The position numbers and the translations under genes were made by a program. Of a stretch of DNA of 64,000 nt, positions 8,318-8,425 are shown piece after piece. The stretch is taken from positions 1,503 to 65,502 of the forward strand of contig JAGGZW010000130.1 in the NCBI GenBank assembly GCA_021161825.1. The letters run 5' to 3'. The stretch comes from Thermoproteales archaeon. Lineage in GTDB: Archaea > Thermoproteota > Thermoprotei > Thermofilales > B69-G16. The notes under the pieces are model-generated. The model did not search any database and was not told the DNA's origin. It saw nothing but the letters and a program-made list of their open reading frames with translations. How positions within the stretch are numbered: position 1 is the first letter of the stretch; each line of letters begins with the position of its first letter.

Positions 8318-8425
8318 CGGGCCCGCCGGGATTCGAACCCGGGACCTACGGCTATCTCCAATCTTCCGAAGGCATGCGGTCCATTGACTATGAAACGCCG
8401 CCCCTCCTAGCTGGGCCACGGGCCC
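8318..8425 (-). tRNA. tRNA-Arg(UCG) with two introns (about 22 nt in the anticodon stem at 29/30; 12 nt canonical at 37/38)
   Basis: Acceptor GGGCCCG/CGGGCCC, D arm GCCC-AGCTAGGAG-GGGC, T arm CCGGG-TTCGAAT-CCCGG. An anticodon arm GCGGC-CTTCGGA-GCCGT forms only after removing 8374-8395 and 8354-8365. The body is near-identical to the tRNA-Arg at 33227-33333. Confidence 0.8.

Follow-up and report, generated by a model that had tools for sequence, protein, structure and literature searches.

The archaeal tRNA splicing endonuclease EndA cleaves its substrates in the two 3-nt bulges of a motif called bulge-helix-bulge (BHB). tRNA genes with several introns, up to three per gene, are concentrated in Pyrobaculum and Thermofilum, and position 29/30, within the anticodon stem, is one of the listed non-canonical intron positions (PMC4090602, PMC3218864, PMC4033280). 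According to Sugahara et al. (2007, 2008), cited in PMC4090602, the tRNA-Pro(UGG) of P. islandicum has introns at 25/26, 37/38 and 56/57. Crenarchaeota possess a broad-specificity alpha2-beta2 EndA (PMC4090602), and tRNA-Thr precursors of Aeropyrum pernix with standard and non-standard introns are cleaved by the crenarchaeal enzyme (PMC3241643).

We report here on a tRNA gene found in a stretch of 64,000 nucleotides of archaeal DNA, referred to below as the window. A first-pass annotation made from the letters of the window had proposed a tRNA-Arg(UCG) interrupted twice, and had stated that multi-intron tRNAs with non-canonical positions are known mainly from Thermoproteales-like crenarchaea and imply a broad-specificity (heteromeric or epsilon-type) splicing endonuclease. 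The first of these statements agrees with the literature (PMC4090602, PMC3218864, PMC4033280), and the second, as regards a heteromeric enzyme, with PMC4090602 and PMC5829648. Our analysis leads us to consider it very probable that positions 8318-8425 of the minus strand are a functional two-intron tRNA-Arg(UCG) gene, the introns of which are cut by the archaeal EndA by way of BHB motifs.

Structure of the interrupted gene

The gene spans 108 nt (8318-8425, minus strand) and contains two short introns, the removal of which leaves a tRNA-Arg(UCG) of 74 nt. Read on the minus strand from 8425 to 8318, it is composed of GGGCCCGTGGCCCAGCTAGGAGGGGCGGCG / TTTCATAGTCAATGGACCGCAT / GCCTTCGG / AAGATTGGAGAT / AGCCGTAGGTCCCGGGTTCGAATCCCGGCGGGCCCG, and its features are the following (a caret marks the cut within a bulge):

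8449..8456, minus strand: TATA-like box TTTAAAAA, read from the sequence at -31 to -24 from the mature 5' end; putative archaeal promoter
8396..8425, minus strand: exon 1, GGGCCCGTGGCCCAGCTAGGAGGGGCGGCG, tRNA positions 1-29
8398..8401, minus strand: exon strand GCGG (positions 24-27) of the central helix of intron 1, pairing with 8376-8379
8374..8395, minus strand: intron 1, TTTCATAGTCAATGGACCGCAT, 22 nt, in the anticodon stem between positions 29 and 30
8376..8379, minus strand: intron strand CCGC of the central helix of intron 1, followed by the 3' bulge AU^G
8366..8373, minus strand: exon 2, GCCTTCGG, 8 nt, positions 30-37, holding U33 and the anticodon U34 C35 G36
8354..8365, minus strand: intron 2, AAGATTGGAGAT, 12 nt, at the canonical position 37/38
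8318..8353, minus strand: exon 3, AGCCGTAGGTCCCGGGTTCGAATCCCGGCGGGCCCG, positions 38-73

Exon 1, which is collinear with intronless tRNA-Arg genes, comprises the 5' strand of the acceptor stem, the D-arm and the first three nucleotides of the anticodon stem (G27 C28 G29). Exon 3 provides the 3' strand of the anticodon stem, the variable loop, the T-arm, the 3' strand of the acceptor stem and the discriminator G; CCA is absent from the encoded 3' end. A/T boxes similar to the one listed above are found 20-35 nt upstream of the other tRNA genes of the window.

The two blocks had been placed beforehand at 8374-8395 (22 nt) and 8354-8365 (12 nt), which is exact to the base, and a cloverleaf is indeed formed only when both are removed. 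Their assignment to 29/30 and 37/38 is confirmed by ARAGORN on the spliced sequence and by the enumeration of anticodon arms described below. The spliced product has an acceptor stem of 7 bp, a D-stem of 4 bp, an anticodon stem of 5 bp and a T-stem of 5 bp, all 21 of the 21 cloverleaf pairs being formed, together with U33, G37 and the T-loop TTCGAAT. The bases that determine arginyl-tRNA synthetase identity are A20 and C35; both are present, along with the anticodon UCG in a 7-nt loop, U33 and a purine at position 37.

The Rfam tRNA model (RF00005) matches 8318-8425 of the minus strand from end to end, with 39.9 bits for a gathering score of 29 and with all model positions 1-71 matched; a block of 45 nt (22 + 8 + 12 + 3) is left unaligned in the anticodon arm. 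ARAGORN makes no call on the unspliced gene. In intron mode (-i) it strips the 22-nt block alone and returns a tRNA-Pro(cgg), as it does again on the sequence minus intron 1, and once both blocks are removed it returns a perfect 74-nt tRNA-Arg(tcg). It had been anticipated that anticodon-like triplets inside the introns would act as decoys: scanners do miss or mislabel the gene, but the actual miscalls are Pro(CGG) and, for a partly spliced form, Leu(TAG), and not the expected Met(CAT) or Pro(TGG).

A better single-intron cloverleaf with another anticodon had been put forward as one finding that would speak against two introns. All the 17-nt anticodon arms that the 51 nt between positions 26 and 44 can yield were enumerated, and among the single deletions none produces a 5-bp stem together with a 7-nt loop and U33. 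Such an arm results from ten double deletions, and only in the pair retained here is the 4-bp BHB central helix complete at each of the two junctions; the nine other two-intron models were discarded for this reason. One of these nine (62-73) leads to the same mature sequence with a poorer BHB motif.

BHB motifs at the two junctions

The motifs were placed in a register consisting of a 4-bp central helix between two bulges of 3 nt, with the cut behind the second base of each, which is that of the canonical motif and reproduces the 37/38 case. Folding of each junction, which had been recommended as a check, gives a strict hBHBh' motif at 29/30 and a relaxed hBH motif at 37/38, both in exact register. 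The latter is of the bulge-helix-loop type.

Intron 1 has a central helix of four G-C pairs, bulges CG^U and AU^G, an outer helix of 5 bp (G19-G23 with C31-C35) and, as its inner helix, a 5-bp hairpin within the intron. In intron 2, the central helix joins CUUC (positions 32-35) to GGAG, the bulge on the 3' side reads AU^A and the inner helix is absent; its outer helix has 2 bp as long as intron 1 is present and 5 bp, i.e. the full anticodon stem, after intron 1 is removed. The motif of intron 2 is recovered unaided by the unconstrained minimum free energy fold of the precursor. When the introns were shuffled, the 4-bp central helix together with an inner helix of at least 4 bp was kept in 0.055% (5.5e-4) of the shuffles of intron 1, and the 4-bp central helix in 4.3% of those of intron 2. 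Copies or repeats of either intron, sought as a sign of transposition, amount to chance k-mers only in the rest of the window and in the fetched loci.

Proposed pathway and order of splicing

A precursor of at least 108 nt would be transcribed, presumably from the TATA-like box of the gene itself. Both introns would then be excised by EndA at the four bulge sites, the exons would be joined by the RNA ligase RtcB, and the ends would be finished by RNase P, RNase Z and the CCA-adding enzyme. Intron 1 would be recognised in an alternative fold of the precursor, in which G24-G27, from the 3' strand of the D-stem, pair with the CCGC lying close to this intron's 3' end, in which G19-G23 of the D-loop and D-stem form the outer helix with C31-C35, and in which the intron folds into its own 5-bp hairpin. 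Intron 2 would be recognised in the usual manner, through the pairing of C32-C35 with the GGAG of the intron.

Because C32-C35 are required by both motifs, in the outer helix of intron 1 and in the central helix of intron 2, the two folds exclude each other and the excisions would be sequential, with refolding of the precursor in between. The motif of intron 1 also takes up the 3' strand of the D-stem. The predicted nearest-neighbour energies of the two folds, for the protein-free RNA, differ little: at 37 C they are -43.6 kcal/mol with the motif of intron 1 and -45.8 kcal/mol with that of intron 2, and at 75 C -13.9 and -12.0 kcal/mol, respectively. Either order of removal is structurally possible. 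The model slightly favours the removal of intron 1 first, since its fold is predicted to be the more stable one at 75 C and since its removal lengthens the outer helix of intron 2 from 2 to 5 bp.

Related tRNA-Arg genes and intron turnover

A scan of reference genomes with a degenerate pattern on the 36-nt 3' half retrieved 28 DNA stretches from Thermoproteales, Thermofilaceae, Geothermarchaeota and several other archaeal metagenome-assembled genomes (MAGs); the allele of the window is not among these 28. Reading of the sequence upstream of the pattern in the 28 stretches revealed that one tRNA-Arg body serves the anticodons UCG, CCG, UCU and CCU, in every intron state:

No intron: L010, L019, L020, L022, L023 and L034
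37/38 only: L014 and others
29/30 only, 12 nt: L008 and L021 (Thermoprotei and Geothermarchaeota MAGs, UCU)
29/30 and 37/38, 16 and 12 nt: L018 (archaeon S6B1_HD70, UCU)
29/30 and 37/38, 20 and 18 nt: L032 (Thermoproteales MAG, CCG)
5/6 and 29/30, the latter of 23 nt: L026 (Thermofilaceae MAG, UCU)

A second scan, of metagenomes with a gapped pattern, retrieved the allele of the window, those of L035 and L036 described below, and one further variant, L043, read apart from its genomic context. In the eight tRNA-Arg genes with a 29/30 intron that were examined, the GCGG strand is invariant and the intron strand is CCGC or CCGT (GCGG/CCGY); the bulges are CG^N and AN^G and the outer helix has at least 3 bp in all eight. 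These introns are 12-30 nt long, with unrelated inner sequences. The BHB core at 29/30 is common to Arg isoacceptors across several Thermoproteota lineages.

The strongest case is that of orthologous tRNA-Arg(UCG) genes located, like that of the window, directly downstream of the triosephosphate isomerase (TIM) gene, in L035/L044 and in L036/L045/L047, whose TIM is 92% (L035) and 88% (L036) identical to that of the window. They consist of the exons of the window gene with no insertion at 37/38, and the L043 allele has the same exons and likewise lacks a 37/38 insertion. Exon 2 is identical in sequence in all three, and the mature tRNA of these sibling lineages is identical to that of the window at 71 of 74 positions. 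Their 29/30 introns (30 nt in L035, 15 nt in L036) are unrelated in sequence to that of the window and keep the BHB core. An additional intron of 13 nt is present at 5/6 in the L035 and L036 genes. Among these homologs, the introns vary while the exons and the BHB core stay constant.

The 5/6 intron, AGGRAACCCCYAA, lies at about 2785-2802 in L035 and about 2783-2800 in L036, and is also present in L026 and L043; Arg(UCG) and Arg(UCU) genes from different MAGs carry almost the same version of it. Its outer BHB helix pairs the 5' leader (GCCAC) with positions 7-11 (GTGGC) in L036 and L026 and has only 2 bp in L035. With the 5' leader engaged in this way, splicing at 5/6 would have to precede RNase P cleavage or compete with it.

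Rfam reported no tRNA in L035-L038 at the gathering threshold. For L035 and L036 this null result was rejected as a false negative, given that a three-exon tRNA-Arg(UCG) can be read in the intergenic DNA of both. The TIM gene is not followed by a tRNA in Thermofilum pendens, T. adornatum, Infirmifilum lucidum and two more distant MAG contigs (L037-L041). In L039 (2760-2830), L040 (2715-2780) and L041 (2690-2750), the contigs of the three named species, a common, conserved motif of ~45 nt (CCTAGCCCTGYTCTTCAYCT...ACCCGRRTTT.CGATCA) lies downstream of TIM.

The spliced product aligns without gaps with the other spliced genes, and natural intronless genes differ from it by one D-loop base only. 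In the alignment with its spliced and intronless relatives, the mean column identity is 95%, the cloverleaf cells pair at 100% and compensatory changes are seen in the D-stem. Nine related tRNA-Arg genes all have A20 and C35.

The sibling lineages carry introns at 5/6 and 29/30 and the window gene at 29/30 and 37/38, so that one intron was apparently lost and another gained. We regard as evenly balanced the broader proposition that the locus records a recent intron turnover, with the 29/30 intron rewritten around a fixed core, and an ordered splicing driven by a conformational switch that unfolds the D-arm.

Host and genomic context

The tRNA gene lies 49 nt downstream of the TIM gene (8475-9152, minus strand). 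The TIM protein shares ~79% identity with those of Thermofilum and Infirmifilum and 88-92% with those of MAGs named 'Thermoprotei archaeon', and this similarity bears out the initial guess of a Thermoproteales-like crenarchaeon. Judged by TIM, the host, from a hot spring, is an uncultured low-GC relative of the Thermofilaceae, a family now placed in the order Thermofilales and formerly in the Thermoproteales. The window has a G+C content of 37% and also holds an archaeal 23S rRNA fragment and an RNase P RNA.

CGA is used 80 times in the 14,911 codons of the window. We know of no inosine-34 decoding in archaea, and the use of CGA would therefore call for a decoder with the anticodon UCG. tRNA-Arg(UCG) is taken to be the decoder of CGA and CGG, and the gene described here is probably the tRNA that reads CGA in this host.

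Over ~6.7 kb including the gene, six metagenome contigs diverge from the window by 0.6-1.4%, and the gene and its introns are identical in all six; this identity is weak evidence of constraint, because at ~1% a stretch of 108 nt should show about one change in each contig and because the contigs lack independence. Among the 40 ORFs of the window that were scanned, none has an EndA or RtcB Pfam domain, and both enzymes are thus assumed from the lineage. Genes for tRNA and RNA processing are dense in the window (41485-43092, 49027-49407, 55704-57008, 57016-58368 and 58675-59017) and include a TGT/archaeosine-type transglycosylase, the RNase P protein Rpr2/Rpp21, a beta-CASP RNase, TiaS (agmatidine synthase) and the RNase P RNA. 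CysRS, MetRS, an exosome Rrp4/Csl4-like protein and an endonuclease V are encoded as well.

Alternative explanations

The failure of standard scanners on this gene, and the possibility that a second, uninterrupted copy of tRNA-Arg(UCG) exists elsewhere in the genome, would fit a decaying or silent pseudogene whose two insertions are never removed. We consider this improbable, as all stems of the spliced cloverleaf are intact, each insertion bears a BHB motif in exact register, the codon CGA is used and a promoter-like box is present. Moreover, relatives keep the 29/30 intron with the same BHB core despite a complete turnover of its sequence, which argues for selection for splicing.

The calls of ARAGORN, which returns tRNA-Pro(cgg) with a 22-nt intron and the same tRNA from the sequence minus intron 1, would rather suggest that the 22-nt block is the sole intron and that the product retains the 12-nt block as another tRNA, e.g. 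a tRNA-Pro(CGG). In such a molecule, however, the anticodon stem would include two G-U pairs and a mismatched C-A, and there would be an odd extra arm; the 12-nt block has a BHB motif of its own, it is missing exactly at 37/38 in the orthologs, and the body belongs to the tRNA-Arg family in which A20 and C35 are invariant. This explanation appears very improbable to us. We give even less credence to insertions that escape the endonuclease altogether, as mobile-element scars, an att site or self-splicing introns. Integration into tRNA genes is common, but blocks of 22 and 12 nt are far too short for group I or group II introns, neither is repeated in the window or in the fetched loci, and their boundaries coincide with BHB bulges. 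A functional tRNA-Arg(UCG) gene with two introns removed by EndA is consequently the reading that we retain.

Other tRNA genes and RNAs of the window

The window contains 11 tRNA genes in total, 9 of which are interrupted. A second doubly interrupted gene, tRNA-Arg(UCU), is located at 33227-33333 (minus strand). Its first 16 nt and its 36-nt 3' half (33227-33262) are identical to those of the tRNA-Arg(UCG) gene. Its 37/38 intron of 14 nt, TCTCTGGGGAGGAA, has a good BHB motif; the other insertion, in the D-loop, is of about 16-18 nt with approximate boundaries, and none of the boundary candidates considered for it had a full BHB motif. ARAGORN labels this gene tRNA-Pro(ggg), and the Rfam match ends early, at 33310. 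Next to it lie a MiaB-like radical SAM gene (31902-33185) and the MetRS gene (30255-31919). A MiaB-like gene also follows tRNA-Arg(UCG) in L035 and L036, and the MetRS gene comes next in L035; these neighbours, common to both Arg loci, suggest a rearrangement between Arg tRNA genes.

Two genes with introns, tRNA-Leu(CAG) (36139-36239, minus strand, 101 nt) and tRNA-Leu(UAG) (59075-59188, minus strand, 114 nt), were missed by both ARAGORN and Rfam at the gathering threshold and were found through their T-arm motif. The introns of Leu(UAG) and Leu(UAA) (24600-24715) have TCTCGAGCAAATAGGGCCGAGA in common. At 51376-51473 (plus strand), a tRNA-Thr(GGU) carries an insertion of ~27 nt in the region of the variable loop or T-arm, i.e. 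at a non-canonical intron position. The gene labelled 'tRNA-??? (aa)' by ARAGORN at 44819-44913 (plus strand) is a tRNA with an intron at the canonical position, read by eye as Lys(CUU), and scores 61 bits with Rfam.

An intergenic GC-rich hairpin of ~100 nt at 26779-26878 stands out from the 37% G+C of the genome, with fold z-scores of -6.6 (plus strand) and -6.9 (minus strand). It has no Rfam match at E <= 1 and is a candidate for an unannotated structured RNA.

Comparison with known systems

As far as its sequence can tell, the gene displays every feature of the archaeal multi-intron BHB tRNA class. The two-intron habit is well documented in the Thermofilum-related group, to which the gene adds one more case, and only two points are mildly new: intron sets that differ between sibling lineages at one locus, and splice-site folds that exclude each other. 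Since ARAGORN misses or mislabels the gene and Rfam misses its orthologs in L035 and L036, a genome of this kind, annotated automatically, would seem to lack an arginine decoder or to possess a proline tRNA that does not exist. Alleles that are close relatives but differ in their introns could moreover serve as a small natural experiment on the gain, loss and resequencing of archaeal tRNA introns.

With the multi-intron tRNAs of Pyrobaculum and Thermofilum, the gene shares a strict or relaxed BHB motif for each intron, a lineage with alpha2-beta2 EndA and the fact of being missed by standard scanners; it differs from them by its identity and intron positions, Arg(UCG) with 29/30 and 37/38, and by its host, a low-GC (37%) relative of the Thermofilaceae recorded in metagenomes only. 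It also resembles the tRNA-Arg genes of L018, L032, L008, L021 and L026, which have the 29/30 site, the GCGG/CCGY helix with its CG^N and AN^G bulges, the same tRNA body and an identical or nearly identical 36-nt 3' half, and which differ in their anticodon, in the length and sequence of the intron and in the accompanying intron (none, 37/38 or 5/6). The sibling tRNA-Arg(UCG) genes (L035/L044, L036/L045/L047 and L043) share the 29/30 intron and, in L035 and L036, the position after TIM, but they have, in place of the 37/38 intron, the 13-nt intron at 5/6 with an outer BHB helix involving the 5' leader.

The Aeropyrum pernix tRNA-Thr precursors offer an experimental precedent for the removal of introns outside 37/38 by a crenarchaeal heterotetrameric EndA (PMC3241643); the organism, the isotype and the positions are other than here, where the gene is known from its sequence. 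The split and permuted tRNA genes of Nanoarchaeum equitans, Caldivirga and Thermofilum pendens (PMC3218864) follow the same BHB logic and depend on the same enzyme. Unlike them, the gene of the window has its three exons contiguous, in order and on one strand within 108 nt, so that neither trans-splicing nor circularisation is needed for its maturation.
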